From: a virus
IMG/VR virus record: IMGVR_UViG_3300035136_000101
Length of the DNA stretch: 64,000 nucleotides
Reading direction: 5' to 3' (one strand)
Shown here: positions 3,003 to 63,201 of the stretch, one piece after another
How the letters are laid out: each line of letters opens with the position of its first letter
Numbering within the stretch: the stretch's first letter is position 1
The notes under the pieces: model-generated
What the model saw: the letters and a program-made list of their open reading frames with translations, nothing else
What the model was told of the DNA's origin: nothing
Databases searched by the model: none
Made by a program: the position numbers and the translations under genes

Positions 3003-3018
3003 GCGAACTCGAGTTCGC
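3003..3018. promoter_or_regulatory. 16-bp palindrome GCGAACTCGAGTTCGC (copy 1), 13 nt upstream of the ATG at 3032, followed by AAGAGG
   Basis: perfect palindrome read directly; extended 20-bp palindrome TTGCGAACTCGAGTTCGCAA at 3001-3020. Confidence 0.8.
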
Positions 3019-3031
3019 AAAAGAGGATGAA

Positions 3032-3373
3032 ATGTATGAAGATGGATATGTAGTAAGAGAAAAAATAGGTAAAAAGAGTGATGAGGTTGCTTGGTGTATT
3101 CCTATGGATTATGAGATAATTCAGATTGTTCTTTATATTAGGCAGGGTGATGACAATATTATATTTGATATTATTGAAGGTAAGCCACGTGTATTTGTTA
3201 GAAAGAATAAAAAAGCTACTGCGTATCTTCAGCGTATAATTAATTCTTGTCATACGTTTGACATTATTGCCTTCAAGAAAAAAGGAGATGATTGTTGTGA
3301 TGTTGTTGCTAAGGAAGGATCTATATCATGGTATAATGATAATCCATCATTGAATCGTAGTTATCATAGATAA
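3032..3373 (+). CDS. hypothetical protein
   Basis: ORF track; RBS aagagg 6 nt upstream. Confidence 0.5.
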   Translation: MYEDGYVVREKIGKKSDEVAWCIPMDYEIIQIVLYIRQGDDNIIFDIIEGKPRVFVRKNKKATAYLQRIINSCHTFDIIAFKKKGDDCCDVVAKEGSISWYNDNPSLNRSYHR

Positions 3374-3407
3374 TAGATTGGAATATATCTGGTTAGGAAA
3401 ATAATGT

Positions 3408-3662
3408 TTGATGATTGTTTTATATATAAAAGATTGTGTAATGGTAAAAAAATATAGACAGGTTTTTCTTGGTTATAACGATAGACGATTGGTGGGATGG
3501 GTGGATAACAGAATGGCCAAAAAAAGGAATTTGGTGACGATAAATGGGTATGATGGTGTATGGGAGATACTTGAAGTATTTGATGATGTAATAGTGGATG
3601 ATGGGAATTTGGATACTTTATCTTCTGAGTATAGACATCATAGAGAAAGAACAGATGTATGA
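3408..3662 (+). CDS. hypothetical protein
   Basis: ORF track. Confidence 0.4.
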   Translation: MMIVLYIKDCVMVKKYRQVFLGYNDRRLVGWVDNRMAKKRNLVTINGYDGVWEILEVFDDVIVDDGNLDTLSSEYRHHRERTDV

Positions 3663-3847
3663 TATTTTTAGACCAAAAATATTTTGTAAAAAAGAAAGGT
3701 TTAAGAAGTAAAATTTGTCCAGATTGTGGTGGTTTTTTTACTAAAACTGAAGATGGATATTTATGTAATTTGTGTGGATTTGAGCTTGATAAAAATGGGA
3801 GTAGTAAATCATATTTTTATGGTGTGATTACTATTGAGAATAAATAA
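3659..3847 (+). CDS. small zinc-ribbon protein
   Basis: CPDCGG ... CNLCG motifs. Confidence 0.4.
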   Translation: MIFLDQKYFVKKKGLRSKICPDCGGFFTKTEDGYLCNLCGFELDKNGSSKSYFYGVITIENK

Positions 3848-3870
3848 TAGATAGGAATATAAGTGTCAAT

Positions 3871-4197
3871 TTGAAATTTAAATGTCTTGTTACTAGGAAA
3901 GAGAAAAAGACTGTTTCTGAAATTTTTTCATTGATTAAAGAACCTTGGTGTGAGGTTGTAGTTGAAATTAAAAAAATGAATATTAGTGTGGTTTCATATT
4001 TTGAGAAAGATGCTGTGGTTTCAAAAATAGATGTTTGGGAAAAGGCAAATACACTAGAAGATTTAATTGATGATATAGAATATTATTCTGGTGAAGTTAT
4101 GCAATTTACTGGAGATGGTGTTTGGTTGAAGTTTGAATTGTCAGAAGATATACTTAGAAGGGTTTTAGAAAAACTTTTGAGGAAAAACTATGGATAG
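3871..4197 (+). CDS. hypothetical protein
   Basis: ORF track. Confidence 0.45.
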   Translation: MKFKCLVTRKEKKTVSEIFSLIKEPWCEVVVEIKKMNISVVSYFEKDAVVSKIDVWEKANTLEDLIDDIEYYSGEVMQFTGDGVWLKFELSEDILRRVLEKLLRKNYG

Positions 4198-4606
4198 GAA
4201 AGAAAGCATAAGAATTCATTGGGATTGGTATGGATATTGTAGGACATGCAAATTTTGGGATAGTCATGAGGATAGAAAGAAACTAGAAGGTAGATGTGAT
4301 TATGAAAAATCACCTAATTACAATGAAGAAGTATGGAGTGAAGGACATTGTAAATGTTGGGAAAGTTTTGACCCTGAAATTGCTAATTTTATTGTGAATG
4401 TAGTTCAAAGAAGACCTAGGAGTGCAGGGGTATGGTTCTATGAAAATAATTATGATGGTCATATAGATGCAGCTCTTGTGGGCAGGAGATATGGAAGGCA
4501 TAGTGGGCCACTGCAAGTATTTCATGTGGAAAATGATGATTGGTGTAATTTTGATGTTTTTGAAAAAGCTGAGGTAGCTAGATGGATGGAGAAAGCAAAA
4601 CCATAA
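4190..4606 (+). CDS. Cys-rich hypothetical protein
   Basis: CRTCKFW ... CDYEK ... CKCWE motifs. Confidence 0.45.
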   Translation: MDRKESIRIHWDWYGYCRTCKFWDSHEDRKKLEGRCDYEKSPNYNEEVWSEGHCKCWESFDPEIANFIVNVVQRRPRSAGVWFYENNYDGHIDAALVGRRYGRHSGPLQVFHVENDDWCNFDVFEKAEVARWMEKAKP

Positions 4607-4797
4607 GATTGGAAGCAAAATGTTCGGAGTGTGGAGAATGGTCAGAAATATCATGGTTTGAGTTTGAATTTTATGCTGGTTATTGGTGGATAGAATCTGG
4701 TCCATGTCCAGTATGTGGAGAATCTGTTAGAGTTGAAGAATTAGAAAGAAGAAGATTCGGGGGTAATAGGAGTTGGAAAGTTGGAAAAGAATCATAG
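4582..4797 (+). CDS. small zinc-ribbon protein
   Basis: CSECGEW ... CPVCGE. Confidence 0.4.
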   Translation: MDGESKTIRLEAKCSECGEWSEISWFEFEFYAGYWWIESGPCPVCGESVRVEELERRRFGGNRSWKVGKES

Positions 4798-5707: not shown

Positions 5708-5934
5708 GTGGATCAAGTTAGGTATAGTTTATGATTGTTCCGTATATTCCAAGATTGTACGAAAGAGGACTGAAATTAAAGTGGTCAAAAATAATTTTGA
5801 TTATTTTAGTAAGTTCTATAATTGCATTTTTAATTGTAATAGCAACATGTTTGTGTGTAGGGTGATTACAATTAATAACTAAACGAGATATGGTGTCGTA
5901 ATATTGGTTTGGAGTTTAGAAGGAGTATTTAATA

Positions 5935-8627: not shown

Positions 8628-8865
8628 GCATAGAGATATCTTTACAAAAGAACAAATTGAAGAATTTGTTGGTGAATTTGTTACAATTAATTATAAGGGT
8701 CTTTTAGATAGGAAAGTTTTGGTAACTAGGCTTTTTAAGGGAAGTATAGGTTTTGATTCTAAAGAAGAATGGATATTAGGTGTTGTTGAAATTGGGAAAG
8801 GATTTTTTGAGATACCGATTGCTATTTCTAATATATTAGAGATAAAGAAATTGGTAGTTGATTAG
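8617..8865 (+). CDS. hypothetical protein
   Basis: start set at the internal ATG with aaggaaaag RBS. Confidence 0.4.
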   Translation: MKIKHRDIFTKEQIEEFVGEFVTINYKGLLDRKVLVTRLFKGSIGFDSKEEWILGVVEIGKGFFEIPIAISNILEIKKLVVD

Positions 8866-8896: not shown

Positions 8897-9100
8897 ATGT
8901 CGAGACGGGTTGTTGTTTGGTCTGGATGTGCTGATTCTACATATCTTCTTCATTGGTATGCTACTTATTCTTCTATACAAAATCCTGTTTATGCTATTAC
9001 GGTTGATTATCATCCTCAATTAGATAAGAAATTTATGGCTGCACAAAGAGCAGCAAAATTTGAAATGGAAAAGAAGAATCCACGGTCACCGTTTTTTTAA
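8897..9100 (+). CDS. hypothetical protein
   Basis: start chosen downstream of the palindrome and RBS; the track start at 8858 lies inside the motif. Confidence 0.4.
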   Translation: MSRRVVVWSGCADSTYLLHWYATYSSIQNPVYAITVDYHPQLDKKFMAAQRAAKFEMEKKNPRSPFF

Positions 9101-10587: not shown

Positions 10588-11297
10588 AAATTGTAGAACC
10601 ATCAGTTGAAGTTATATTTTGGGCTCCTGAAGATAGTGGAACATTAGAGGAAGGAATTGAGAAAGCAGCAAGAACTTGTTACAAAAGTGAAGGGAAAATT
10701 GGTGAAGGAACAGCGGATAAACTGATTAGGAAACTCAGAAAAAGTGGTCACCATGCTATGCTTGAATTTGGTTATATAATGGCAAGGATTATTGCGGACC
10801 GAGGTTTGAGTCATGAATTGGTAAGGCATAGATTGGCTTCCTTTGCACAGGAATCGACACGATGGTGCAATTACAATTCTGAAAGATTTGATTCTGAAAT
10901 TTCTGTAATAGAACCTCCAGGATTGACAGAGGAACAGAGAGTCATATGGTCTGTAGCAATGGCTGATGCTGAAAGACATTATATGACTTTGATAAAAATT
11001 GGTGCTAAGCCACAAATAGCTAGGTCGGTTCTTCCGATAGGGTTAAAGACTGAGATTGTTATTGGGGCAAATCCAAGGGAATGGAGGCATATTTTTAAGA
11101 TGAGGTGTGATAAATATGCTCACCCTATAATTAGGAGTATAATGATAGAGATTTTGTTGCAGTGTCGTGATAAATATCCTGCTATTTTTGATGATCTTTT
11201 TGATGATTTGCCTGATGAACTTATAAATAAATGGTCGGAATTAAAAGATAAAACTATGAGAGAAGTGATTATGAAACATGTTGTTGACAAAACATGA
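10584..11297 (+). CDS. thyX: flavin-dependent thymidylate synthase ThyX
   Basis: ThyX signature RHR-x7-S then RW/Y (ELVRHRLASFAQESTRWCNY); HHAMLEFGY upstream. Confidence 0.85.
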   Translation: MKIVEPSVEVIFWAPEDSGTLEEGIEKAARTCYKSEGKIGEGTADKLIRKLRKSGHHAMLEFGYIMARIIADRGLSHELVRHRLASFAQESTRWCNYNSERFDSEISVIEPPGLTEEQRVIWSVAMADAERHYMTLIKIGAKPQIARSVLPIGLKTEIVIGANPREWRHIFKMRCDKYAHPIIRSIMIEILLQCRDKYPAIFDDLFDDLPDELINKWSELKDKTMREVIMKHVVDKT

Positions 11298-13317: not shown

Positions 13318-13532
13318 TATGTATAAAGAAAAATTAGAAGTATTACGTGCAAATGTTGCTGTTCAATCTTCTGATGGAAATTGGAATTATGACCCATATA
13401 ATCATGGTTATGCTAATGGTTTAATTTTAGCTGAAGCTATTATGCATGATTTGGAACCTAGATTTGAAGGATTTTGAAAGAATTAGTTTGGATTCTGAAT
13501 TGTCAGCTTTGAATGTTTTGAACAGGAGTATT

Positions 13533-13548
13533 GCGAACTCGAGTTCGT
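13533..13548. promoter_or_regulatory. 16-bp palindrome variant GCGAACTCGAGTTCGT (copy 3), 20 nt upstream of the ATG at 13569
   Basis: one terminal mismatch; followed by aaaggagga RBS. Confidence 0.75.
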
Positions 13549-13568: not shown

Positions 13569-13904
13569 ATGGAATGGATAGGTGTTGATTTGGATGGAAC
13601 ATTGGCTGAATATGATAAATGGCGTGGTCCTTCTCATATAGGTAAGCCTATTTCTAAAATGGTTGATAGAGTAAAAAGATGGCTTAAGGATGGAAAGGAT
13701 GTTCAGATTTTAACAGATAGATTTCATAAGGATAATCCTGGTAAGGTTGAATCTGAATTGGCAATTAATTTGTGGACTAAAAGAGTCTTTGGAAAATCGT
13801 TAAAGACTAGAGCTGATAAAGATTTGAATATGATTGAATTATGGGATGATAGATGTATTCAGTTGCTTACTAATACTGGAGAAAGAGTTGATGGTAAAGA
13901 ATAA
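13569..13904 (+). CDS. HAD-family hydrolase (putative nucleotidase/phosphatase)
   Basis: HAD motif I DLDGT (GVDLDGTLAEY); DD-type motif near C-terminus (LWDDR). Confidence 0.55.
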   Translation: MEWIGVDLDGTLAEYDKWRGPSHIGKPISKMVDRVKRWLKDGKDVQILTDRFHKDNPGKVESELAINLWTKRVFGKSLKTRADKDLNMIELWDDRCIQLLTNTGERVDGKE

Positions 13905-28659: not shown

Positions 28660-28675
28660 GCGAACTCGAGTTCGT
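28660..28675. promoter_or_regulatory. 16-bp palindrome variant GCGAACTCGAGTTCGT (copy 6), with TTGACA-17-TAAGTA-like promoter just downstream
   Basis: read directly; 71 nt upstream of the ATG at 28746. Confidence 0.7.
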
Positions 28676-28745: not shown

Positions 28746-29192
28746 GTGATGGGTAATAAGATTGTGATTTGTCCATATTGTGGAAAGAAGGCTGAATTAA
28801 AAACTGGCAGAGAAATATATTTGGGTAGGGGTTCTTGGGATGGTAAAAAGTTTTGGGTTTGTGAGCCTTGTAATGCTTGGGTTGGGTGTCATGACCGAAA
28901 TAAGAGATATGGGCGTGTTGGTGATGAACCATTAGGTAGACTTGCTAATAAAGAGTTGAGAGAAGCGAAGATGAAAGCTCATTTGGCATTTGACCCTATT
29001 TGGAAAGAGAAAAGTATGAAGCGTAAAGAGGCTTATGCATGGCTTGCTAAGAAGTTAGGAATACCTGCTGAGGAATGTCATATAGGAATGTTTGATGTAG
29101 ACATGTGTAGAGAAGTGGTAATAGTAATGTCTGATTATTCGTTAGTAGTTGCAAATGCAATTTGTGGGCATCAACTTGGGAAATTGGAATAA
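28746..29192 (+). CDS. zinc-finger-containing hypothetical protein
   Basis: CPYCGKK ... CEPCNAWVGCHD. Confidence 0.45.
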   Translation: MMGNKIVICPYCGKKAELKTGREIYLGRGSWDGKKFWVCEPCNAWVGCHDRNKRYGRVGDEPLGRLANKELREAKMKAHLAFDPIWKEKSMKRKEAYAWLAKKLGIPAEECHIGMFDVDMCREVVIVMSDYSLVVANAICGHQLGKLE

Positions 29193-29197
29193 TAAAA

Positions 29198-29410
29198 ATG
29201 TCTAATAATAAATATAGGCTAAATATTGAACTTACAGATCAAGTAATGAAAAGATTGAACAAATTAGTTGTGGAAAGTGATTCAAGTTCTAAGACTGATG
29301 TTATTAGAAAATCGCTTGCTTTATATGAGACAATAATGCGGATTCGAAAAGAAGATGGACAAGTTATATTATTATTAAGAGACGGAAATCAGATGGAATT
29401 GGTATTTTAA
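29198..29410 (+). CDS. ribbon-helix-helix (CopG/Arc-like) small DNA-binding protein
   Basis: YRLNIELTDQVMKRLNKL...KTDVIRKSLALYE beta-strand plus two helices pattern; start at ATG 29198. Confidence 0.4.
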   Translation: MSNNKYRLNIELTDQVMKRLNKLVVESDSSSKTDVIRKSLALYETIMRIRKEDGQVILLLRDGNQMELVF

Positions 29411-29496
29411 ATAGGAGTGTCATATTATGGTGGTTTGACAAGGAAACAACGTAATAAATTAGAGCAGATCTATGATTATTTTTTGGGAGTTTATTA

Positions 29497-29682
29497 ATGG
29501 AAACAAATGAACAATTTTATAATGATATTGATAAAGCAAGAGAAGAAGGAAAGATTAGTTTAACAGAATGGGAGATTGATTTTATTGATTCAATTGGTGA
29601 ACGATTGGATATGGGACGTGATTTATCCAGGAAACAGCGTGAAACGCTGGATAGAATTCATGAAAAAATAAGACCATGGTAG
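29497..29682 (+). CDS. hypothetical protein
   Basis: ORF track. Confidence 0.35.
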   Translation: METNEQFYNDIDKAREEGKISLTEWEIDFIDSIGERLDMGRDLSRKQRETLDRIHEKIRPW

Positions 29683-30161
29683 ATGATAAATATTTAATAG
29701 ATGCAGCTGTTAGAATACTTGCATCTGTTTCTGATAGACACCTTGATGTGATTAAGCTTAATAAAATTCTTTTTTATCTTGATTTGAAATCATTGCTTGA
29801 GTGTAGTGAAACAGTAACTCATAAAGATTTTATTGCAATAAAGCAGGGGCCAGTAATTTTAAATTACAGAAAATGTCTTGTTGATTCTATGAAAGAAAAA
29901 GGTTTGATTGTTGTTGAAGGTGATACGTTAATATTGTTGAACAGGACAGGTTTTGATGGGAAATTTTATTCTGATGAATTTTTATATGTTTTAGACCTTA
30001 GCAATGATGATTCTTTTTGGGATTGGTATAAAGAAAATATTGGTTGGCAGATTGCATATAGAGAGGGATTAGGAAGAGGGAGGAAACCACAATTTATTAA
30101 TATGCATTTGGCTATGCAACAGATAGTTGATGATAATTGGAGGTATGAAAATGTTGAATAG
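29676..30161 (+). CDS. Panacea-domain (SocA/GepA-like) protein
   Basis: DVIKLNKILFYLDLKSL...FIAIKQGPV matches the Panacea pattern (KLQKLLYYAQ ... GPV). Confidence 0.55.
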   Translation: MVDDKYLIDAAVRILASVSDRHLDVIKLNKILFYLDLKSLLECSETVTHKDFIAIKQGPVILNYRKCLVDSMKEKGLIVVEGDTLILLNRTGFDGKFYSDEFLYVLDLSNDDSFWDWYKENIGWQIAYREGLGRGRKPQFINMHLAMQQIVDDNWRYENVE

Positions 30162-30330
30162 AATAAAGAATTTTTTTGGTAGAATTATTTGTATGTGTGT
30201 TGGTTGCAAAATGGATCGTGATGTTTCTATAGTCGAGGAGTGGAAGTGTACTAGGTGTGGATATCATCATGAGAAGATTGATTGGCCAACGGTAGATGTA
30301 AATTATAATCATTTTGATGATGCAAGTTGA
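30151..30330 (+). CDS. small zinc-ribbon protein
   Basis: CMCVGCK ... CTRCGYHHE; start ATG 30151 after ggaggtatg. Confidence 0.35.
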   Translation: MLNRIKNFFGRIICMCVGCKMDRDVSIVEEWKCTRCGYHHEKIDWPTVDVNYNHFDDAS

Positions 30331-30336
30331 GATAAT

Positions 30337-30549
30337 ATGAAACCTATTATAAAAGTAAGTGGTGAAGTTATTACTATTAAAGAGTTGAAGGATTTTGTAA
30401 AAGATTTACCAGAAAAAGATAGTTATACTGGTGATGATTATGAAGTATGGATTGGTAGAGGAAATATATCAAATCCATGTAGACAATTATGGACATTAAA
30501 TAAGAGTGACCGTGGTTGTGATATTTTATTGAGTGATGATGTTGGTTAA
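30337..30549 (+). CDS. hypothetical protein
   Basis: ORF track. Confidence 0.4.
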   Translation: MKPIIKVSGEVITIKELKDFVKDLPEKDSYTGDDYEVWIGRGNISNPCRQLWTLNKSDRGCDILLSDDVG

Positions 30550-30573
30550 AGTAATTATTGGAATAGCAATTAA

Positions 30574-30816
30574 ATGAGTACCGTGAAGATAAAAAATGAT
30601 GCTGATCTAAAAAAAGCTTTTAATCGTCTCGATGAAATTTGGACATCAAAGCCAGGTGAAGAGAACTGGGAAGAACGTTGTGACTTGGTGGACAAGATTG
30701 AACAATATGAGAATTTGACTGTTGATATTTCTCCACCAAATCCGGTTGATGCGATTCTTTTTAGAATGGAGCAAAGTAACCTGCTTTTGAAGGTGATTAA
30801 TAATGAAAAAGAATGA
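30574..30816 (+). CDS. HigA-family antitoxin N-terminal-domain-like protein
   Basis: IKNDADLKKAFNRLDEIW ... PNPVDAILFRMEQ matches the conserved N-terminal extension of HigA-type antitoxins (I.teeey..al.ri.eL ... PDPveaIkFRMeQ). Confidence 0.45.
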   Translation: MSTVKIKNDADLKKAFNRLDEIWTSKPGEENWEERCDLVDKIEQYENLTVDISPPNPVDAILFRMEQSNLLLKVINNEKE

Positions 30817-31051
30817 ATTTGGTAGGCATCTAAATGCTATCCGCATTAGCAAAAATATAAGTCTTGATGAATTAGCAAATGAAACCCAAATAGCTTCATG
30901 GGTTTTATGGCTTTATGAAGAAGGGAGGGAAATTCCTAAAAAACCTAAAGTTCATGCGATAGCAAGAGTATTAGGTTGTGATGCTAGGAATCTTTTGGAT
31001 TCAAGGAAGTATTCATTAGCGGAGAAACGGAGAAATAGTAATGAAATTTGA
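30803..31051 (+). CDS. XRE-family HTH DNA-binding protein
   Basis: helix-turn-helix LNAIRISKNISLDELANETQIASWVLWLYEEG. Confidence 0.5.
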   Translation: MKKNEFGRHLNAIRISKNISLDELANETQIASWVLWLYEEGREIPKKPKVHAIARVLGCDARNLLDSRKYSLAEKRRNSNEI

Positions 31052-31307
31052 GGAGAACAAATCAATAGGGCATAAGGAAGGGGATTTTTTTATTGGTGGA
31101 AAGATGGTAACGGTACCAGTTCCTCAATGGGAGAATACTAAACAGGGTGATGCTATACGTTCTAAAAGAAGAGCAAGTGGTATTACATTGAGAAGAGCTG
31201 CATCTATGATAGGAATAACTGGTACAGAATTGACAGGGTTAGAGATAGGGAAATATAGTATTTCAGAAGATGATTTTGATGATATTATGAGAAAATTGAG
31301 TGAGTAA
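31041..31307 (+). CDS. XRE-family HTH DNA-binding protein
   Basis: IRSKRRASGITLRRAASMIGITGTELTGLEIGK. Confidence 0.5.
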   Translation: MKFEENKSIGHKEGDFFIGGKMVTVPVPQWENTKQGDAIRSKRRASGITLRRAASMIGITGTELTGLEIGKYSISEDDFDDIMRKLSE

Positions 31308-32722: not shown

Positions 32723-32738
32723 GCGAACTCGAGTTCGC
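32723..32738. promoter_or_regulatory. 16-bp palindrome GCGAACTCGAGTTCGC (copy 7), 15 nt upstream of the ATG at 32754
   Basis: perfect palindrome, followed by agaaagg. Confidence 0.8.
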
Positions 32739-32753: not shown

Positions 32754-33131
32754 ATGAAGTTTCATAATTGGACAGAAGAAGATGATAGTAAGTTGAAGGT
32801 AGCTATAAGAGATTGTCAGCCTATTTTTGACCACTATAAGGAACAAGGTAAAACTTATAGTGAAGCTAATGCATGGGATGCTATTGCTGGAAGATTGTTG
32901 CCTGATATTTGTGTCACAGGTGCAGCATGTAGAAGACGATACGAGAAAATAAAGGAAAAAGAGAGTAGTGGTTGGGAGGATACAATAGAAAAAGTTGAGG
33001 CTTATGAGCGTGGATTAGCAGAGACAACTTTTGATGGAGTTTCTGAATTGCTTGGTAATGTAGATGCTATATTTGACGCTATAAGAGATATAAGAGAAGA
33101 GATTAGAGAATTAAAAGACATTTGGAAATGA
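32754..33131 (+). CDS. hypothetical protein with Myb/SANT(MADF)-like segment
   Basis: WTEEDDSKL ... AWDAIAGRL ... CRRRYEKI resembles the W..(spacer)..aW..IA..L...C..rW spacing of SANT/MADF domains; weak. Confidence 0.4.
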   Translation: MKFHNWTEEDDSKLKVAIRDCQPIFDHYKEQGKTYSEANAWDAIAGRLLPDICVTGAACRRRYEKIKEKESSGWEDTIEKVEAYERGLAETTFDGVSELLGNVDAIFDAIRDIREEIRELKDIWK

Positions 33132-36177: not shown

Positions 36178-36525
36178 GGGGTCGATTTGGTTTCGACATT
36201 TGACTAGATTGATATTATGCATGTTCCGCTTTGGGTGTTCAGCGGATTAAAAAGAATGCTTGAATACAATCGTCAGACATAACGATAGCCAAGTTTGGGC
36301 TGAAGCTGCCTAAACCGTCCAAGTGCTGATTGCCTGTGTAGGTATAAGGGCGTCATTTTTACAGGATAGTGACCATTTTTCATGGGAAATGGTGAGCGAA
36401 AATTACCATGAAGAATTTGTATGTAGTTGTCTATCATTGCATGCAAATTATTTAGATAGACTAAACATGTGAAGATTAATATTGAGATGTCTAAATGGAC
36501 TGGGGTTCGATTCCCCACGACTCCA
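36178..36525 (+). ncRNA. ssrA: tmRNA (SsrA-like)
   Basis: 5' GGGGTCGATTTGGTTTCGAC matches the tmRNA 5' consensus GGGGnnGAUUnnGnUUCGAC; 3' tRNA-like GGACTGGGGTTCGATTCCCCACGACTCCA, acceptor pairs with the 5' end; internal frame ending NDSQVWAEAA-TAA resembles tag peptides (ANDENYALAA). Confidence 0.65.
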
Positions 36526-36532
36526 ACTATAT

Positions 36533-37226: not shown

Positions 37227-37301
37227 CGGGATGTAGCGCAGTCTGGTTAGCGCACTTGATTTGGGGTCAAGGGGTCATAGGTTCGAATCCTATCATTCCG
37301 A
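37227..37301 (+). tRNA. tRNA-Pro (anticodon UGG)
   Basis: full cloverleaf drawn by hand: acceptor CGGGATG/CATTCCG, D-arm GCGC-AGTCTGGTTA-GCGC, anticodon stem CTTGA/TCAAG with loop TTTGGGG, T-arm ATAGG-TTCGAAT-CCTAT; 75 nt. Confidence 0.85.
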
Positions 37302-37599
37302 CGAGGAGCAGCCTCAAAACTGCAATATAGGTGAAAGTCCTTAAGGATGTTAACGATGTGAGAACATTTAAGTGTTGTTTTCCTCTGGCGAATTGGCTAA
37401 GTCATGAAACCACAAGGCATCCTTGCCACTGTTGCTGTGCAGTATCACAGTGTCTATGTCCTATAATCAGTTTGTTTTAGAAGACGTTCTAGACAAAGAT
37501 GAATAAGGAGTAGACCGGGTTTGCTGATTGTCCGAGAAACGAATTAGACCTATATGGAGTGAGCCATACAGCTTGGTGCGATGCCAGGCATTTAAATAT

Positions 37600-39734: not shown

Positions 39735-39905
39735 GTCTTTGGATGACTATAAACTCATCATGGTGGAGGTGCAAAAGCAACTATAGCTAATATATCATGA
39801 TGATATATTGCAACCTGTCCTGGGGTTGTTGCAACATGAATTAATTAAGGTTCTCACATTTTCACTGTTTCATGTCCAGGACATTTTTAAAAAAAACGAA
39901 GGATA

Positions 39906-39940
39906 AAGCCTAGCAAATGATGATTTGTTAGGCTTTTTTA
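39906..39940 (+). terminator. rho-independent terminator
   Basis: 12-bp stem AAGCCTAGCAAA / TTTGTTAGGCTT, loop TGATGA, followed by TTTTTTA. Confidence 0.55.
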
Positions 39941-40032: not shown

Positions 40033-40048
40033 GCGAACTCGAGTTCGT
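40033..40048. promoter_or_regulatory. 16-bp palindrome variant GCGAACTCGAGTTCGT (copy 8), 22 nt upstream of the terS-like ATG at 40071
   Basis: read directly. Confidence 0.75.
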
Positions 40049-40070: not shown

Positions 40071-40721
40071 ATGGATAGAGATATAGTTAAAAGGGAGAAA
40101 TTTTCTAAAATAAAAAAGCTTCGTTGTTTTCAGAGAGTGCATGAGATGTTATCTCATGGTTATCCTGCACCAGGGGTTGCAAATTTTATTAGAGAACAGG
40201 GAGAATATCTGCATGTTAAAGAACAATCTTTAATTGAGGTACTTAGAAAATATAGACAAGAGATTCTTCCTGCAGATGTTTTGGTGACTAGACAGCCACA
40301 TGTTATTATTGATGCAAGAAAACAATATACTGATAAGTTGGAAGAGCTTCGTAGAATGGATGATTTGTATGAAGCTCTTAAATATGAGTTTGATGTTGGA
40401 CATGCTCAATTTAGAATGCATGGATTTTCAGATCAAGAGCATAGACATACCGCAAAAGCATTGATGGATTTAATTTATAAAATGCACATGGTCAAGATGG
40501 ATCTTGGTATTTCTGGTCAAAGAAATCTTGGTACGATAACTGTATCACCAGAGAGATTGGAAGAGATTCGTTTAAAATATGGTGATAAAGCAGCTAAGGC
40601 GATGTCTGATCCAGTAAGTAGAGCAAGAGTTATTGCTTATCTTAAAGCAGCACAAGATGCAGCTGGTTTGAAGGAAAAGGAAGATGCTGGAGAAATAATT
40701 GATGTTAAGGTTGAGAAATGA
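40071..40721 (+). CDS. putative terminase small subunit
   Basis: 216-aa gene immediately upstream of, and overlapping by 4 nt, the large terminase; position only. Confidence 0.45.
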   Translation: MDRDIVKREKFSKIKKLRCFQRVHEMLSHGYPAPGVANFIREQGEYLHVKEQSLIEVLRKYRQEILPADVLVTRQPHVIIDARKQYTDKLEELRRMDDLYEALKYEFDVGHAQFRMHGFSDQEHRHTAKALMDLIYKMHMVKMDLGISGQRNLGTITVSPERLEEIRLKYGDKAAKAMSDPVSRARVIAYLKAAQDAAGLKEKEDAGEIIDVKVEK

Positions 40722-44459: not shown

Positions 44460-45314
44460 ATGGCATATATTCAAGGTTCAGCAATAGAAAAGGTGAGAAT
44501 AGGAAGTATTGAGCATAAGCTTGGTGATATACACGATTTTATTCAGGAGGAATATAAAGATGCTTTGCGTATTATTGCTACATTTGATGACCATGTGTTA
44601 GCCTTTAATGGAGAAGGCAAATTAAGGAATATTTCTTTTTTGATAGATGAAGATGGGAAGATGAGAATTAATGAAGACAAAGCATCTAGGTCTATTCCTA
44701 TTATAAAAGAAGAAGAAATCCCATCTCATGTATCAAAAGAACTAAAAAGTATAGCTAAATCTATGATGAATGGTGATGATGTATTGCGAACTCGAGTTCG
44801 CGAGTTGGTGCCTTTTATTAATGATAAAGATATGATTTGGTTTTCTGATATTATGAATGGTATCAAAGAATCTACAAAGCCTAATGAGTGGAGTAAAATG
44901 TATGAGGCTAATGTAGAGCGTATAAAGACAAGACTTTATGGTCGCATTAGAGACATAGAAGGTGGAGTTCCTAAAACAAGATATTCTAGATTGCCGGAAG
45001 AAAGAATTTATGAATTTGCAAAAGAAGTGAATGAATCTATGTCAATTCTTCTTGACCGATATAAAATTATAATAGAAGGTTGCAAAGATTTATCATTTTG
45101 TGATAATAAGTTTTTAGGTGCCGTTTGTGAATCGTTGATAGTTGAAGCGCAGGCTGCTGTTAGTCTGCTTGGTAAGGCCGAAAAGTTGTCAAGGCATGAG
45201 GATTTGCCTTTAGTAGCAAAGGCACATGACAAATTGGCCGACCGAGCAAGGACAATGGTTTTGTTATCAGAATATCTGAAATTAAAAGCAAAACCTAACA
45301 ACAAGGAGCGTTAA
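44460..45314 (+). CDS. hypothetical virion-assembly-region protein
   Basis: ORF track; contains palindrome copy 9 in frame (encoding LRTRVRE). Confidence 0.45.
   Translation: MAYIQGSAIEKVRIGSIEHKLGDIHDFIQEEYKDALRIIATFDDHVLAFNGEGKLRNISFLIDEDGKMRINEDKASRSIPIIKEEEIPSHVSKELKSIAKSMMNGDDVLRTRVRELVPFINDKDMIWFSDIMNGIKESTKPNEWSKMYEANVERIKTRLYGRIRDIEGGVPKTRYSRLPEERIYEFAKEVNESMSILLDRYKIIIEGCKDLSFCDNKFLGAVCESLIVEAQAAVSLLGKAEKLSRHEDLPLVAKAHDKLADRARTMVLLSEYLKLKAKPNNKER
44786..44801. promoter_or_regulatory. 16-bp palindrome GCGAACTCGAGTTCGC (copy 9), inside CDS 44460-45314, about 33 nt upstream of an in-frame ATG
   Basis: perfect palindrome read directly. Confidence 0.8.
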
Positions 45315-49825: not shown

Positions 49826-49860
49826 AAGGGTCGGGTCGATATCGGCTCGACCCTTTTTTT
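49826..49860 (+). terminator. rho-independent terminator after the capsid gene
   Basis: GC-rich stem AAGGGTCG...CGACCCTT with inner GTCGATATCGGC hairpin, then TTTTTTT. Confidence 0.65.
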
Positions 49861-51089: not shown

Positions 51090-51830
51090 ATGAATTGTGG
51101 AGTAGAATGGAGTGATAATAGAGCAACTGATGTTGTGAAAGAATATATTCTTGATGAACTAGGTTGTGATGTCATAGGTGTTGAGCTCACGGATAAGCAT
51201 TTGGAGAGTGCTATTCGTAAGGCACAGGAATATTGGTTAATGTGGGTTGGTAGGGTACGTTCCGTTGATTTGACGCTTACTAGTGCTAGGGAATATCCTG
51301 CTTCTGTCCTTGGTCCAGATGTTGATAGTGTAGTTGATGTTTATTTCGATGCTTATGATTCTTCTTTGAAAGATATTTTTGGGTGGGCAGATGTAGAGAT
51401 AAATCCATTTCAATATGTTTATGAAGGGAGAGGGGGATATTCTGGATTAGTTCAATATATGATGTATCGGGATGATGCTAAAAAAATTGTATCAGCTGAC
51501 CGAGATTGGCAATGGGATAAGTCTAGGCGTATATTGGTAATATCTCCAGAGAATAGTAATACTAGGAAGATAAAAGTTGTTTATCTTTCAAGATGTTTTG
51601 ATTATAATTATTTAAGTACATATGAGTGGCATCTATTTAAGGAATATGCTTTAATGAGAGCAATGAAAACTTTGGCTACGATTAGAATGAAATATTCTGA
51701 TAAGCCATCTGCAACAGGTACATATACAATGGATGGTGAAACGATGTATGCAAATGCTGAAGCTATGGAAATGCGACTTGAAGAGAAGATGCGGTTGATG
51801 CAACATCCAGTTGGGATAATGACCGATTGA
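51090..51830 (+). CDS. hypothetical structural-region protein
   Basis: ORF track. Confidence 0.45.
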   Translation: MNCGVEWSDNRATDVVKEYILDELGCDVIGVELTDKHLESAIRKAQEYWLMWVGRVRSVDLTLTSAREYPASVLGPDVDSVVDVYFDAYDSSLKDIFGWADVEINPFQYVYEGRGGYSGLVQYMMYRDDAKKIVSADRDWQWDKSRRILVISPENSNTRKIKVVYLSRCFDYNYLSTYEWHLFKEYALMRAMKTLATIRMKYSDKPSATGTYTMDGETMYANAEAMEMRLEEKMRLMQHPVGIMTD

Positions 51831-51845: not shown

Positions 51846-51861
51846 GCGAACTCGAGTTCGC
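51846..51861. promoter_or_regulatory. 16-bp palindrome GCGAACTCGAGTTCGC (copy 10), 18 nt upstream of the ATG at 51880
   Basis: extended shared context AATTTTTGGCGAACTCGAGTTCGCAAGAGG, same as copy 12. Confidence 0.8.
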
Positions 51862-51879: not shown

Positions 51880-52743
51880 ATGGAAGACATCGCAAAGTTT
51901 CGCATTTTGACAGAACAAGTTCTTAGTGAAGATGAAAAAAAACTTACTGGAATAGGGCTTCAAAACAAACAAAGGCGTGAATTAGATGAGGAAGTTGTTG
52001 GATATAAGATAGAATCTTCTAAAAAGGAAGAAGTTCCTTCTTTGGTTTCAGATAATGATAGTGATGATTTGGTTTTTGTTTTTGAAGATGAAGAAGATGC
52101 TGTGGATATGTATTCTTTTTTTGTTGAATCAAAATTTTTAGATGTTGGTGAAATAGTTTTGAGGAATGTTAATGAGGAACATACTGTTTCTTTTAATTCT
52201 AATGTTATTACTATGAAACCAGAACTGATTCAAGCAGCATTGTTAGCATATGAAGATCGTTTATATGTTGAGACAGAAGATGAATTGAAAGCTTTTGAAG
52301 ATGTTATAGAAGGTCTTACTGATTTGTTGGAAGCATCAGGTACAAGAACATCTGGAGCGCCAAAGCGCAAAAAAGGAATGGGTAATCCTTTTCATGATAG
52401 AGATGATGGTAAGTTTTCTGGTGCAGAAAGTCATGCATCAAAAGGTGGTGGGTCTTGGGCTATTGGGAAAAGGAAACTAAAATTTACAGGTAAGGGTAAA
52501 AATAAGGATGGAGGATTGCTTGTAAAATATGGGTCAACGAAGCATCCATGTGGTAGGGCAGCTAGAAAAAAAGGGCTTGATGTTCGTTGTTGGGATGGAA
52601 AGGGTGCATCAGGTTCAACTCTTTCAAGAATTGGTGCTAAGATATCAGGAATTATGAAAGGAAAGAAGCGAGCGAAAGAAGATATAAATATTGCTGATCT
52701 TTCTTTTATAATGGAGATGAGAGCTAAATATAATAATATGTGA
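51880..52743 (+). CDS. hypothetical structural-region protein
   Basis: ORF track; RBS aagagggag. Confidence 0.45.
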   Translation: MEDIAKFRILTEQVLSEDEKKLTGIGLQNKQRRELDEEVVGYKIESSKKEEVPSLVSDNDSDDLVFVFEDEEDAVDMYSFFVESKFLDVGEIVLRNVNEEHTVSFNSNVITMKPELIQAALLAYEDRLYVETEDELKAFEDVIEGLTDLLEASGTRTSGAPKRKKGMGNPFHDRDDGKFSGAESHASKGGGSWAIGKRKLKFTGKGKNKDGGLLVKYGSTKHPCGRAARKKGLDVRCWDGKGASGSTLSRIGAKISGIMKGKKRAKEDINIADLSFIMEMRAKYNNM

Positions 52744-60130: not shown

Positions 60131-60222
60131 TTTTTGGACATGGTAATTTTGAAATTGTAGTATATTTGTATATGTAGTATTTTGTATATGTTTGTAATAT
60201 ATTTAAAAATCAGGAGAATATC

Positions 60223-60552
60223 ATGACTAAAAATTTTGAAACTGTAATTTTTGTTGACCCAGTAATTTTGATTATATCTGTATTTATTTTAACGGTTGTT
60301 AGTATTTCTACTTTAGTAATTGTTTATAAAATATATAAGATGCATGATGTTAGGAATTCTGATGGCTCTTATGCCTGGATGGTACCTACTAATTTTTTTG
60401 ATATTCAAAAGCAAATTACTGATAGCCAAAATAATATGGTTGTTTTAATTAAAGAAATGAATGAGCAACAGAGTCAGATTTGTGAAATTTTAAGTAATTT
60501 AGTTAGTGAAACGTCATCTTGGAGAGAACAAAAAGATGTCGAAAAAGAGTGA
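60223..60552 (+). CDS. small membrane protein (holin-like candidate)
   Basis: single TM helix ILIISVFILTVVSISTLVIVY; RBS caggagaatatcATG. Confidence 0.35.
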   Translation: MTKNFETVIFVDPVILIISVFILTVVSISTLVIVYKIYKMHDVRNSDGSYAWMVPTNFFDIQKQITDSQNNMVVLIKEMNEQQSQICEILSNLVSETSSWREQKDVEKE

Positions 60553-61090
60553 TGAATATGATATCCGATATTTAGGAACTCTATATGAGGATTTATCAGA
60601 AGTTACTAAACGTCAAACTATTACTCTTCAGTCATTAGAGAGAATTGCTATAGAGACACAGACTTTTCTAGAAGCACAAGGAGAGAAGGTTGATGATAAT
60701 AAGAAAACGATAAAAGATCATGATGTTAGAATAAGAAGTGTTGAGAGAAAACAGGATTTGTGTAATGCATCAGATGATATTAGTGGAATAAAGAAACAGT
60801 TGAATCGTCTTATAGCTTTTAAAGATATGATTTTGTCTAAAACAAATGAAGATAGTGGAGTTTTAGATATTCATGCATTGAGGATGAAGAAAGCTGTTGA
60901 TGATGCGATGCTTAATCAAATACCTGTTAAGCTTTTGTTGATAAAAATGTTACCTTGGATGATTCTTGTTTTTGTAGTAGGTATTGTATTAGCTACTATT
61001 ATTACTACTAAAATGTTTTATGATGATAAAATTATTGTTCCTAATCCGCCAATTTCGCCAATAGAAACAGAAACGAACTCGAGTTCGTGA
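60536..61090 (+). CDS. hypothetical protein with C-terminal TM helix
   Basis: LPWMILVFVVGIVLATIITT; coiled-coil N-terminus; palindrome copy 11 overlaps its stop codon. Confidence 0.4.
   Translation: MSKKSDEYDIRYLGTLYEDLSEVTKRQTITLQSLERIAIETQTFLEAQGEKVDDNKKTIKDHDVRIRSVERKQDLCNASDDISGIKKQLNRLIAFKDMILSKTNEDSGVLDIHALRMKKAVDDAMLNQIPVKLLLIKMLPWMILVFVVGIVLATIITTKMFYDDKIIVPNPPISPIETETNSSS
61073..61088. promoter_or_regulatory. 16-bp palindrome variant ACGAACTCGAGTTCGT (copy 11), 19 nt upstream of the ATG at 61108
   Basis: two terminal mismatches; followed by aaaggag RBS. Confidence 0.7.
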
Positions 61091-61107
61091 GTTAAAGGAG
61101 AATTGAT

Positions 61108-61374
61108 ATGCCAAAAGATATGAGAGAATTGATAGAAAAAACAAATATTGATTCAAAATTAAAAATATCATGGAATAAAATTTTTAAACAATTAAGTGAT
61201 ACTTCTGAACTTGATACTGTTATTTTTCATTTTTCAAAGTCTATTTTGAGAGCTGGAATTAATAATAAAGAATTAGAAAAAAAAAGGAAGGAATTTAGAA
61301 AAGTTGCTGATGAATTAACAGAAATAATGCATGATATTGTTTATGGATATTTAGAGAAAAGATCTAATATATGA
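61108..61374 (+). CDS. hypothetical protein
   Basis: ORF track. Confidence 0.4.
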   Translation: MPKDMRELIEKTNIDSKLKISWNKIFKQLSDTSELDTVIFHFSKSILRAGINNKELEKKRKEFRKVADELTEIMHDIVYGYLEKRSNI

Positions 61375-61683
61375 ATAGGATTGTTACAAGAGGATTAGGT
61401 CCAACGCAATTATTGATTACTCGAGGTTATGGGTTTACTGGTGCAATAGTAAAAATTTATAGAGAAATTTTAAGATTAGTATCAAAAGTTACTACTAGAT
61501 TGGGATTAGTATCACAATGTCAGAAGAAAGATTGTGTTTAGTATCAAAAATTACTAAAGAAGTAGATTTAACATCTAATCTTAACATATCTGTCAATATT
61601 GTATCAAATATAGGATTGGTGATAGAGGAGGTTTCTATGATATCTCCAGGATTGATTTTGACATCAGCATTTCATTTAGAGGA

Positions 61684-62010
61684 GTGCACATAATGGCTAC
61701 AGTTTGTTCTAATTGTGATCTTGATGGTAAATATTATATAGGAGATATAGGTACTGAGATAATTGTAGATACTTGTGTTGATTTAGTTGAAGCTGGAGCT
61801 ACAGTTACAAATTTGATTGTTGAAAAGCCAGATAGGACAGTTGAAATATGGGTTGGTTCTATTTATGGAACAACAAGTATTAAATATGTTGTTCAGGTTG
61901 GTGATTTTGACCAGGCAGGTCCATATAGAATTCAAGCATATGTTGAGATGCCTGGTTGGACTGGTAGGGGTAATACAGCAACATTCCAAGTAACGGATTT
62001 GTTTGGTTAG
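61684..62010 (+). CDS. hypothetical protein
   Basis: ORF track; RBS tagaggagtgcacataATG. Confidence 0.45.
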   Translation: MHIMATVCSNCDLDGKYYIGDIGTEIIVDTCVDLVEAGATVTNLIVEKPDRTVEIWVGSIYGTTSIKYVVQVGDFDQAGPYRIQAYVEMPGWTGRGNTATFQVTDLFG

Positions 62011-62012
62011 TT

Positions 62013-62864
62013 TTGAGACGAATAAGAAAATATAAATGTACTAATGGGCCATCTACGTTGTGTCAGTTTTCATTAAGTAGTAAGACAATAAAATTAATGA
62101 AAGAAATTGAGAATGAATGGCCTAAAAGATTAAAGGAATCTCGTTTCTTTTTTTTACTAGATGTAGCAAATTTTTTAGTAGAGGAAGTTAAAAAGGCGAA
62201 TGTATCAATTAGTATTGACGGAAAAGATAAATTATATGCAGAAGATTTGAGAATAGGGATAGTAGATAGTGAAGAAGAAAATGATGTAATTGCTATTTAT
62301 TTAGATGGTGAAAATGCAGAAGTAACAGAAGAATATGCTACAAAAACAGTATTATATTTTAATTCACATAATGGTTCACCTGAATGGATATCTGTATTAA
62401 ATAGATATGGTCCTTGGCCATCAAATATGGTTCCTATTGAAGTTAATTCGACACATGCTAGAATTGTTTCGAGATTGGCAAGAAAAGATGAAATTTTAGC
62501 ATTACAAGAGAGAATATTTAAGAATAGAGGTAAGATTGAATTGGATTTTTTACGGTCAGGAATTCCAAATGTTGATATTGGTGAAACAACAAATGGAATA
62601 GGGCTTAAAGTTCATGAAGATTTGGGATATAATGTACTTAGAAAGGAATTTGGGTTTGATGGTGAAAAAGGAAGAGCGCATTGGAGGCCAGCTTTTAAGG
62701 AAACAAAAAAATATGCTATGAAGTGCATGGAAAAGGTTGTAGAATATATACAGACTGGTGATAAAAATATATTTAATTTATCATTAAAAGCTGATAAAAT
62801 TAATTCGTCTGTAGTTAAATCAGGAGAGGGTTTTGCAAAAGAACTAGCTCCTTTTTTGAAATAA
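62013..62864 (+). CDS. hypothetical protein
   Basis: ORF track. Confidence 0.45.
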   Translation: MRRIRKYKCTNGPSTLCQFSLSSKTIKLMKEIENEWPKRLKESRFFFLLDVANFLVEEVKKANVSISIDGKDKLYAEDLRIGIVDSEEENDVIAIYLDGENAEVTEEYATKTVLYFNSHNGSPEWISVLNRYGPWPSNMVPIEVNSTHARIVSRLARKDEILALQERIFKNRGKIELDFLRSGIPNVDIGETTNGIGLKVHEDLGYNVLRKEFGFDGEKGRAHWRPAFKETKKYAMKCMEKVVEYIQTGDKNIFNLSLKADKINSSVVKSGEGFAKELAPFLK

Positions 62865-62881
62865 GAGTTGAGAGGTGAAAG

Positions 62882-63178
62882 ATGACAAAATCGGTTGATA
62901 TAAATCCTAATAATGTTGATAAGAATAGTAGTAAGGTTAGTAGGTTAGATGATTTGAATATTACTTTGATGGGAGTAGAGAATGATTTGATGGGTAGAGC
63001 TTTGGATAGAAGTAGAGATGAAGTAGAAAGAGCATATGATTTTATAAATAAAGCTGCAGAGAATGATGTGATAGAAATAGATTGTGATGGTTGTGATGAT
63101 GAATCTAATATTGTACAATCATCCAGTGATGAAGATAAAGATAAGAATAATGAGCCTGTTAAAGAGCCATCTGATTAA
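62882..63178 (+). CDS. hypothetical acidic protein
   Basis: ORF track; RBS gagaggtgaaagATG. Confidence 0.4.
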   Translation: MTKSVDINPNNVDKNSSKVSRLDDLNITLMGVENDLMGRALDRSRDEVERAYDFINKAAENDVIEIDCDGCDDESNIVQSSSDEDKDKNNEPVKEPSD

Positions 63179-63185
63179 TTTTTTG

Positions 63186-63201
63186 GCGAACTCGAGTTCG
63201 C
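63186..63201. promoter_or_regulatory. 16-bp palindrome GCGAACTCGAGTTCGC (copy 12), 11 nt upstream of the ATG at 63213
   Basis: perfect palindrome; AATTTTTTGGCGAAC context identical to copy 10. Confidence 0.8.

Follow-up and report, generated by a model that had tools for sequence, protein, structure and literature searches.

The 64,000-nucleotide stretch analyzed here, hereafter the window, comes from IMG/VR virus record IMGVR_UViG_3300035136_000101 and contains twelve copies of a 16-bp palindrome, GCGAACTCGAGTTCGC, which are the subject of this work. The window belongs to a T4-type myovirus. Its structural genes include those for a T4-like portal, a prohead protease, and a gp23-type capsid protein, and it also encodes a large terminase (recognized by a PHROG match), a gp13-like neck protein (PF26809), a gp15-like sheath stabilizer, an SNF2 helicase, ThyX, a dCMP deaminase, and a thymidylate kinase. 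Coding is almost exclusively on the plus strand, with ~93% of the window in plus-strand open reading frames (ORFs), and the composition is 31–37% GC with an extreme excess of G over C on the coding strand (skew +0.28 to +0.53). Host-type intrinsic terminators with T-runs were found at 39905–39936 and, after the capsid gene, at 49833–49853, and TTGACA/TATAAT-like elements are present in several intergenic regions.

No annotated or cultured relative of this phage was found among deposited phages, as megablast of 12 kb of the window against INPHARED gave no match and tblastn with the capsid and neck proteins gave best matches of ≤32% identity (31.5% for the capsid protein). Homologues were identified on metagenomic contigs of 160–190 kb, and capsid-protein scans of metagenomes and of GTDB returned only four and one close relatives, respectively. 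The GTDB relative is a phage contig that had been binned as an “uncultured archaeon”, a label which is uninformative on the host, and the cluster names of the NCBI-derived homologues carry no taxonomy.

The whole window was searched for GCGAACTCGAGTTCGC with up to three mismatches allowed, and the chance level was determined from dinucleotide shuffles. Exactly twelve matches were obtained (at 3003, 8869, 13533, 20291, 25800, 28660, 32723, 40033, 44786, 51846, 61073, and 63186), against a mean of 0.03 and a maximum of one in the shuffled sequences. These are the same twelve copies that an earlier, sequence-only reading of the window had reported, and its count of seven perfect copies and five with one or two terminal mismatches was also reproduced (four copies have one mismatch and one has two). 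The copies are located as follows:

3003..3018, copy 1, GCGAACTCGAGTTCGC: 8 nt past the stop codon of ORF 2668–2994 and 13 nt before the ATG at 3032; the palindrome here reaches 20 bp, TTGCGAACTCGAGTTCGCAA
8869..8884, copy 2, perfect: 3 nt past the stop codon at 8865 and 12 nt before the ATG at 8897
13533..13548, copy 3, GCGAACTCGAGTTCGT: 55 nt past the stop codon at 13477 and 20 nt before the ATG at 13569
20291..20306, copy 4, perfect: the TAG stop codon of ORF 20043–20291 ends on its first base
25800..25815, copy 5, ACGAACTCGAGTTCGC: 8 nt past the stop codon at 25791 and 26 nt before the ATG at 25842
28660..28675, copy 6, GCGAACTCGAGTTCGT: in a 132-nt intergenic region, 70 nt before the GTG at 28746
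32723..32738, copy 7, perfect: 15 nt before the ATG at 32754 of a Myb/SANT-like 125-residue protein
40033..40048, copy 8, GCGAACTCGAGTTCGT: occupies the 3' end of the 336-nt region with which the terminase/head gene block begins, 22 nt before the ATG at 40071
44786..44801, copy 9, perfect: inside ORF 44460–45314, the gene after the portal gene, at codons for R-T-R-V-R
51846..51861, copy 10, perfect: between the gp13-like neck gene (51090–51830) and the next gene (ATG at 51880)
61073..61088, copy 11, ACGAACTCGAGTTCGT: on the last codons (T-N-S-S-S) and TGA stop codon of ORF 60506–61090, 19 nt before the ATG at 61108
63186..63201, copy 12, perfect: 7 nt past the stop codon at 63178 and 11 nt before the ATG at 63213 of the gp15-like tail sheath stabilizer

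The terminal mismatches that the sequence-only reading had counted are present, but they are not noise, since position 1 of the motif is always a purine (R) and position 16 is always a pyrimidine (Y). Because only this R/Y terminal pair varies, the inner 14 bp are an invariant core, and this dyad, CGAAC-N4-GTTCG, with R on one side and Y on the other, is the functional unit. Of the fourteen CTCGAG sites in the window, twelve belong to motif copies. As a separate observation on composition, the window is strongly depleted in CpG (three CGCG observed versus 38 expected, and 78 TCGA versus 171); the motif nonetheless has three CpGs.

Eight of the twelve copies are fully intergenic, though only 7.2% of the window lies outside plus-strand ORFs (P = 2.7e-7). 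In nine copies, the motif ends 13, 12, 20, 26, 15, 22, 18, 19, and 11 nt before the next start codon, in agreement with the range of 11–26 nt first reported, and in the copy at 28660 the distance is 70 nt. The copies are mostly directly before an A-rich Shine-Dalgarno sequence, usually 0–6 nt from it. This proximity is largely expected, since the very short gaps of so compact a genome leave a 16-bp site little room. The initial emphasis on a 5'-leader, Shine-Dalgarno-linked element is weakened by the relatives (loci of related phages are designated here by L and a number), in which about half of the motif copies are deep in genes; the protease gene, tail genes, and an intein are examples, and L145 has all six of its sites inside genes.

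Several copies merit individual comment. Copy 6 is 43 nt downstream of a -10-like element, TGATATAAT, with a TTGACA coming after the copy, and copy 8 follows, at a distance of 30 nt, a TATAAT that is also kept in L008. Copy 7 may be in the last 27 nt of an ORF of 49–54 residues. Copy 11 does overlap a stop codon as had been described, and so does copy 4, which is most likely within the 5' part of ORF 20252–20647, where it encodes A-N-S-S-S. Copy 9 is indeed inside a coding sequence, but the in-frame ATG ~33 nt further on is not conserved in relatives (it is GAT in L021), and an internal translation start after this copy was rejected on that basis. At copy 11, we also observed that a close relative (L016, ~3597–3620, compared with window 61089–61135) has a 24-nt deletion between direct repeats, GAATTGAT, that takes out the ATG of the gene following the copy; a possible TTG start remains.

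The spacing of the copies along the window is more even than random, with intervals of 2.1–9.2 kb and a coefficient of variation of 0.38 (P = 0.0006). A related, non-overlapping 38-kb contig with eight copies also showed even spacing (coefficient of variation 0.41, P = 0.012), and the pooled intervals from all loci (n = 34) averaged 5.9 kb and extended from 1.8 to 12.2 kb. Even spacing may not be valid everywhere, as record IMGVR_UViG_3300034989_000065 has ~21 kb between L004 and L009 in which no exact 14-mer was found among the matches listed. The even spacing fits a function that is needed once per stretch of genome, and it is the least explained feature of the motif.

The conservation of the motif in related phage genomes, one of the checks proposed at the outset, was examined at increasing evolutionary distances. 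The exact 16-mer was identified in 13 low-GC, skewed IMG/VR fragments, and the remaining matches were chance occurrences in high-GC contigs. Similarly, the matches listed in a 14-mer scan of IMG/VR were mostly chance occurrences in high-GC contigs, and only low-GC skewed loci were used. In relatives of 71–99% nucleotide identity, the motif is present at the orthologous places of the copies at 32723, 40033, 44786, 51846, and 63186; for instance, copy 7 is kept at the orthologous place in L008 and L024 (~75% nucleotide identity) and copy 12 is kept in L132. Considering the window and its low-GC relatives together, the 14-bp core is perfect in 37 of 39 non-identical contexts, and the other two have one substitution each. 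The terminal pair in these 39 contexts is G-C in 15, A-T in 10, G-T in nine, and A-C in five. Covariation within the terminal R/Y pair was considered and set aside, as it was not significant and the excess of G-T is as predicted by the strand composition bias.

More distant relatives were reached with the gp13-like protein as a ladder, which gave 20-kb loci from phages at 34–74% identity in this protein and with GC contents of 41–58%. Ten of these loci have 26 perfect CGAAC-N4-GTTCG boxes, of which 23 are in nine loci whose gp13-like proteins are 44–74% identical (~0.13 expected by composition) and three are in L147. The dyad is thus conserved clade-wide, including at orthologous sites, and is fitted by the 12 window copies, 14 copies in other low-GC loci, and the 26 in distant relatives. 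Within this box family, the half-sites are constant down to 44% neck-protein identity and across GC contents of 33–58%, and the spacer is always 4 bp. At the gp13|gp14 junction, where copy 10 is kept in L021, L129, L135, L139–L142, and L147, the box and the ATG are the sole invariant columns amid an otherwise diverged spacer. A literature search found no description of such a site family in T4-type phages.

In contrast to the half-sites, the four central bases vary between lineages. The spacer TCGA is confined to the lineage of the window, and elsewhere we found TCAA (13 copies), TTGA (nine copies), GTAC (once), and ACGA (once). TCAA and TTGA are reverse complements of one another, and both were found upstream of co-oriented genes, even at one orthologous gp13|gp14 junction, showing that the site is independent of orientation. 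The centers TCGA and TTAA were found in none of the 22 copies of the TCAA/TTGA lineages. We also noted that the change of the central CpG to TpG or CpA in relatives is the pattern expected from a deaminated methylated CpG.

A box copy is also present in the terminase intein of L020, L131, L135, and L139, an intein which the window does not have. Close relatives (~98% identity) have inteins in both the large terminase and the portal (L020, reverse complement, 3054–4509; L131, 1–1445 and 2623–3884) that are absent from the window, where the insertion point corresponds to 41377. The terminase intein has an out-of-frame 329-residue ORF with NUMOD3-like repeats, of the homing-endonuclease type, which overlaps the open intein frame and whose TAG stop codon overlaps the motif copy. 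In L139 (10745–10843), the final ~20 nt of the gp13-like gene recur in diverged form (…GTGGGTATAATAACCGGGTAA) in the spacer before the box, as if an imprecise exchange with another lineage had left a scar there. In L142, a degenerate box, TGAAATTGAGTTCA, at 10677–10690 is 46 nt upstream of a perfect box and represents a decayed piece of the motif.

The intragenic copy 9 is fixed in its place. The site is kept at the same codons in nearly every relative and was found there in nine sequences; the third codon positions are invariant at four of four positions inside the core versus one of 29 outside. In L146 (43% identity), there is no CGAAC box, and instead CCGCACACGTGTGCGG, of the form CGCAC-N4-GTGCG, is present twice. 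One of these copies is at the codons of copy 9, and the peptide is still R-T-R-V-R, as the codons CGA ACT CGA GTT CGC have become CGC ACA CGT GTG CGG. The dyad is preserved in L146 because two pairs of synonymous positions have changed in a complementary way. The second L146 copy is directly after a stop codon and 27 nt before the next ATG. In L145 (34% identity), six YGCAA-N4-TTGCA sites were found, all of them intragenic, and one is again at the codons of copy 9, where the peptide has been altered to C-N-Q-L-H and the codons spell the new palindrome (TGCAA-N4-TTGCA). A different outcome was seen in L136, which has a single box with the center GTAC; its intragenic site is gone and the peptide is changed at that place (PARMRE).

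There are, then, three site families, CGAAC-N4-GTTCG, CGCAC-N4-GTGCG (L146), and YGCAA-N4-TTGCA (L145), all with the same 5-N4-5 layout and each used both at the orthologous intragenic position and elsewhere. The place and the layout are conserved, and the half-site word is lineage-specific and changes together in all the copies of a genome. Such switches of a whole family in step are consistent with co-evolution of the sites with a trans-acting factor.

Comparison of the core with known regulatory sites revealed a match that had been overlooked in the sequence-only reading. The core agrees with the LexA (SOS, or “Cheo”) box of Firmicutes and Actinobacteria at ten of ten defined positions. In all the copies counted, the CGAAC and GTTCG half-sites are exactly 4 bp apart and no other spacing occurs, and the chance that an unrelated 14-bp palindrome would match all ten LexA positions is about 1 in 1000. 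The LexA boxes of B. subtilis are GAAC-N4-GTTC and CGAAC-N4-GTTCG (PMC4234289, PMC3091678), and the Firmicutes consensus is CGAACRNRYGTTYC, with TACGAACATATGTTCGTA in lexA promoters (PMC2248561). Mutagenesis of the LexA box of Verrucomicrobium spinosum, TGTTC-N4-GAACA, showed that its arms are essential and that the 4-bp spacer and the flanks are tolerant (PMC4951493). Across phyla, the readout of the arms by LexA changes and the 14-bp layout is kept, e.g., AGTAC-N4-GTACT in cyanobacteria (PMC4951493, PMC3091678). The phage sites mirror LexA boxes closely in these respects, as their arms are invariant, their center and flanks are softer, and long periods of stasis are followed by arm switches in which the layout is kept. 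The central step of the phage spacers (TCGA, TCAA, TTGA, GTAC, and ACGA) is always pyrimidine–purine, as it is in ATAT, but their outer positions are T..A instead of R..Y and are conserved. The TA..TA flanks of Firmicutes boxes were also compared and dropped as evidence, since agreement is limited to R at -1 and Y at +1 and the T/A preference is one position further out. The site word of L146 may also resemble the LexA box of Fibrobacter, TGCNC-N4-GTGCA. An operator for a dimeric regulator was the first of the roles originally listed for the motif, and it is the one that the comparative evidence favors. Based on these sequence comparisons, we propose that the motif family may represent double-stranded-DNA operators for a twofold symmetric LexA-type protein, either the LexA of the host or a phage homologue, and we regard the chances that this proposal is right or wrong as evenly balanced.

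A number of points weigh against a LexA-type operator, however. The phage spacer, T-Y-R-A, differs from that of Firmicutes, R-N-R-Y (ATAT), and its T/A is conserved despite the reported tolerance of LexA to spacer changes. Classical LexA boxes overlap promoters, and no promoter is conserved next to the phage boxes; sigma-70-like sites were not enriched (85 versus 88.7 in shuffles, in a scan that is uninformative in AT-rich DNA), and the -10-like elements that are visible put the box 26–43 nt downstream. The phages look to be lytic and T4-type, with no integrase or repressor seen in the window, and jumps between hosts explain the half-site switches no better than a phage-encoded factor does. 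The tight placement just 5' of the Shine-Dalgarno sequence is still suggestive of an RNA-level role. To our knowledge, the 5-N4-5 dyad is also not unique to LexA among helix-turn-helix dimers. A further point concerns the protein itself, as Pfam and PHROG surveys of 120 window ORFs gave no match to LexA_DNA_bind or Peptidase_S24, and phmmer searches of the related loci, which are small parts of their genomes, with approximate LexA queries gave no match.

The same surveys of the 120 window ORFs identified no integrase, ParB, or RNA polymerase, and the regulators they found comprised two HTH_3 proteins, one RHH protein, one weak FUR-like protein, and one “transcriptional regulator”. Encoded XRE and RHH proteins had been suggested as the regulators acting on the motif, and nothing ties the motif to them. 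Between copies 6 and 7 (29162–31307), there is a cluster of small genes of regulator or toxin–antitoxin-like type, which encode a SocA/Panacea-domain protein, an RHH protein, and a neighboring pair of XRE-type helix-turn-helix proteins; no link to the motif was found. The 125-residue protein encoded after copy 7 (32754–33131, plus strand) bears a W-x-EED signature of the Myb/SANT-like type, has a coiled-coil at its C-terminus, and gave no Pfam match. Within the clade it is conserved (50% identity on a 188-kb contig), and it is also present, at 56% identity, in the unrelated, box-free phage L144, where its gene is between two DNA methyltransferase genes. This protein was dropped as a candidate binder since there is no box upstream of its gene in L143 and since it is present in the box-free L144.

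If the sites are LexA-type operators, a host LexA dimer, or a phage LexA-like winged-helix protein of the same specificity, would occupy about one site per 5–6 kb; most of these sites are where cistrons meet in long co-directional operons, and some are within genes. Like the stoperators of some temperate phages, the bound dimer could then serve as an operator or as a roadblock that can be removed, and transcription of the whole phage genome would be tied to the level of active LexA, i.e., to the SOS state of the host. The sites of a replicating phage genome would also be expected to soak up LexA; because there would be ~30 sites per genome, phage replication would unavoidably sequester it. A far-reaching form of this proposal is that an apparently lytic clade of large T4-like phages carries ~30 perfect boxes for the LexA of its host, one of them at a head-gene position that is kept by recoding. 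Infection would be gated by the SOS state, as a LexA-dependent kind of “lytic deferment”, replicating phage DNA would titrate LexA and turn on SOS, and the box family would be exchanged upon transfer of a lineage to hosts with a LexA of different half-site specificity. We offer this form, which was built from sequence comparisons, as tentative and as somewhat doubtful in its entirety.

There are precedents for parts of such an arrangement. In phage GIL01, the host LexA is the lysogeny repressor and a truncated LexA homologue is also encoded (PMC6182141), and SPbeta has ~10 SOS boxes, some of which are bound by LexA with a nanomolar dissociation constant (PMC8270828). The sites described here share the 14-bp dyad, span, and spacer length of the LexA box of Firmicutes and Actinobacteria, but the known phage SOS boxes are few, degenerate, and promoter-associated, whereas the window has ~12 perfect sites in 64 kb that are mostly off promoters, some of them in structural genes. 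The stoperators of Cluster A mycobacteriophages such as L5 and Bxb1 are 20–30 dispersed sites, mostly off promoters, that block elongation and have a subcluster-specific consensus (PMC6550527). In behavior, the sites here are closest to these stoperators, and in sequence they look like LexA boxes. They resemble stoperators in being many dispersed copies in short intergenic gaps away from promoters (PMC6550527, PMC9283540), in having a lineage-specific consensus with all sites changing together, and in the block to elongation proposed. Stoperators, however, are asymmetric, 13 bp long, aligned with the direction of transcription, and recognized by the monomeric immunity repressor of temperate phages, whereas the sites here are symmetric and orientation-free, with asymmetric centers in both orientations, and no repressor or integrase was found in the window. 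Lytic phages of Alphaproteobacteria carry sites for the host regulator CtrA, which has been associated with “lytic deferment” (PMC9437464). Those CtrA boxes are likewise a conserved host transcription-factor motif in a phage genome that couples infection to the state of the host, but they are clustered in promoter-rich intergenic regions and are of variable score, unlike the evenly dispersed, perfect sites found here, which are often within operons or genes.

Dispersed palindromic operators are also represented by the KorB OB sites of the IncP plasmid RK2 and the SopB centromere sites of the phage-plasmid N15. In these systems, ~12 identical operators are spread over an element of ~60 kb, some of them far from promoters, and are served by one global dimeric regulator. 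KorB and SopB are proteins of the ParB family, whose parS-like sites have no N4 spacer; by contrast, no ParB was found in the window and an N4 spacer is present. Short intergenic repeats are known as the PeSL cassettes of T4-type phages, the 17-bp palindromes of Cluster O, and the start-associated sequences of Cluster K mycobacteriophages, and some of these have dyad symmetry and some are close to start codons. PeSLs consist of a sigma-70 promoter and a terminator stem-loop, and the start-associated sequences are asymmetric and include the ribosome-binding site. We know of no element among these that is LexA-type or that is retained in genes by recoding.

Other explanations of the motif differ first in whether it is read as DNA or as RNA. 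Based on the pattern of changes in the center and the arms, we consider it very probable that the motif acts at the DNA level, as a double-stranded site. The center appears to be read as double-stranded DNA because TCAA and TTGA are interchangeable and TCGA and TTAA are unused in those lineages. An RNA hairpin with a 6-bp stem and a 4-nt loop, situated in 5' leaders or between cistrons and read by a sequence-specific RNA-binding protein or a nuclease, would instead affect mRNA stability, processing, or translation, and a 5'-leader hairpin had been among the roles first suggested. It would account for nine of the twelve window copies ending shortly before a start codon and its Shine-Dalgarno sequence, an architecture that recurs in distant relatives, and for the box being in the leader where promoters are visible; yet short spacers alone force this adjacency, stoperators, whose action on DNA is established, are placed likewise (PMC6550527), and about half of the copies in distant relatives, with all of those in L145, are deep in genes. 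Some are in terminase inteins or in the gene for the prohead protease, and there processing or termination would do harm. The changes from A-T to C-G at positions 3 and 12 between lineages keep pairing, and sequence-invariant 6-bp/4-nt hairpins that are read by proteins exist, e.g., the histone stem-loop with SLBP. Within a family, by contrast, no G-U-type or compensatory change was found across ~60 copies, and a purely structural hairpin is excluded because these copies have long diverged without any such change. A protein reading the hairpin would need to read the stem and yet ignore the loop, while the exchange of UCAA for UUGA loops, with UCGA and UUAA absent, is sensible only for double-stranded DNA. 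The center is also self-complementary in three families (TCGA, ACGT, and GTAC), for which a hairpin loop has no need. The predicted fold is weak, with energies between -6.6 and -10 kcal/mol and z-scores between -0.8 and -2.4, and it is not the minimum-energy fold in L140; an Rfam search gave no match for the motif. We therefore regard the hairpin as improbable. A promoter or transcription-start element for a phage RNA polymerase or sigma factor, or an unusual terminator, is in our view hardly credible. A highly conserved word of 14–16 bp every few kb upstream of genes would suit a promoter, as would the distance from the motif center to the ATG (19–34 nt), which resembles the geometry of T4 late promoters, and phage N4 has hairpin promoters. 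But the symmetry of the site is perfect and it occurs in either orientation ahead of co-oriented genes, while all the genes are on one strand, and no RNA polymerase gene was found in the window, where TTGACA/TATAAT-like elements and host-type terminators are found elsewhere. The judgement of the sequence-only reading that the motif is not an intrinsic terminator was upheld, as most copies are followed by an A-rich Shine-Dalgarno sequence and generally not by a T-run. Copies that are deep within essential late genes also count against a promoter or terminator.

Among the explanations at the DNA level, the motif could be a target for a nickase or a methyltransferase, or a short homology for the shuffling of modules as in PeSLs. 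Copies do come and go with mobile DNA, one being in the terminase intein/homing-endonuclease insertion (L020, L131, and L139), the duplicated 3' end of gp13 beside the L139 box suggests imprecise exchange, and the change of CpG to TpG/CpA in the center could reflect a methylated CpG. However, the breakpoints of synteny between the window and its relatives are not at boxes, the site has been retained at exact codons over very long evolutionary times, and 14 bp is very short for homologous exchange. An XhoI/TaqI methylation or nicking target had been suggested in view of the CTCGAG and TCGA cores, but these are missing from most lineages, which have TCAA or TTGA, and could not provide a general function. 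We consider explanations of this kind very unlikely. The strongest competitor has the same architecture of dispersed operators or roadblocks, with the binder being a phage-encoded symmetric regulator unrelated to LexA and the identity with the LexA box being coincidence or mimicry. The switching of the half-site across the whole set of sites in L146 and L145, which parallels the co-evolution of repressor and stoperators in Cluster A, would be natural for such a protein, and the sites are away from promoters; in addition, neither the conserved T..A of the outer spacer nor the concerted TCGA center of the window's lineage is a known requirement of LexA. On the other hand, an unrelated palindrome would have had to fit all ten LexA positions by a roughly 1-in-1000 chance, a conserved host factor fits better with half-sites that are constant from 100% to 44% neck-protein identity and over GC contents of 33–58%, and no candidate was found to be conserved together with the boxes, the Myb-like protein being present in a box-free phage as well. 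We consider a phage regulator of this kind to be possible but rather unlikely.

Should LexA or a similar protein prove to bind the sites, we would know of no earlier lytic-type T4-like lineage with a regular, SOS-linked global operator that spans early and structural genes. The comparative data provide a natural experiment in the co-evolution of a protein and its ~30 sites, with deep stasis of the half-site, later switches of whole families, and a coding sequence rewritten so that a site stays in place. They also offer a testable handle on two questions, namely, how large virulent phages sense DNA damage in their hosts and whether control of the stoperator type extends beyond temperate actinobacteriophages. 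The motif could also serve to mark this uncultured clade and to narrow its hosts to bacteria with a LexA of the GAAC-N4-GTTC type. Of particular interest are the clade-wide perfect sites, the recoding of a head gene to hold a site, and a link to the SOS response that is testable.

Several other features of the window were noted. An 884-residue protein (21203–23857, plus strand) contains a clear shoulder domain of the Major Vault Protein (PF11978, E = 3.6e-24), together with a weak match to the Vault_3 repeat; it is without a PHROG match and is an unusual gene for a phage. A lone half-site, TTGGCGAAC, at 21175–21183, ahead of this gene, is an isolated piece of the motif. The AT-rich intergenic region at 60131–60222 has several TGTATAT(G/T)T and GTAGTAT repeats, which may be promoter elements of another class. 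A tmRNA (36178–36528; Rfam score of 109 bits, with a tag peptide ending in AEAA) and a tRNA-Pro(UGG) (37227–37302) are also encoded. Three more motifs resembling tRNA T-arms, GGTTCGA(A/T)(T/A)CC, were found nearby, in DNA classed as intergenic, at ~36721, 36854, and 37738; these were called by neither ARAGORN nor Rfam and may represent fragmented, intron-containing, or degenerate tRNA genes.

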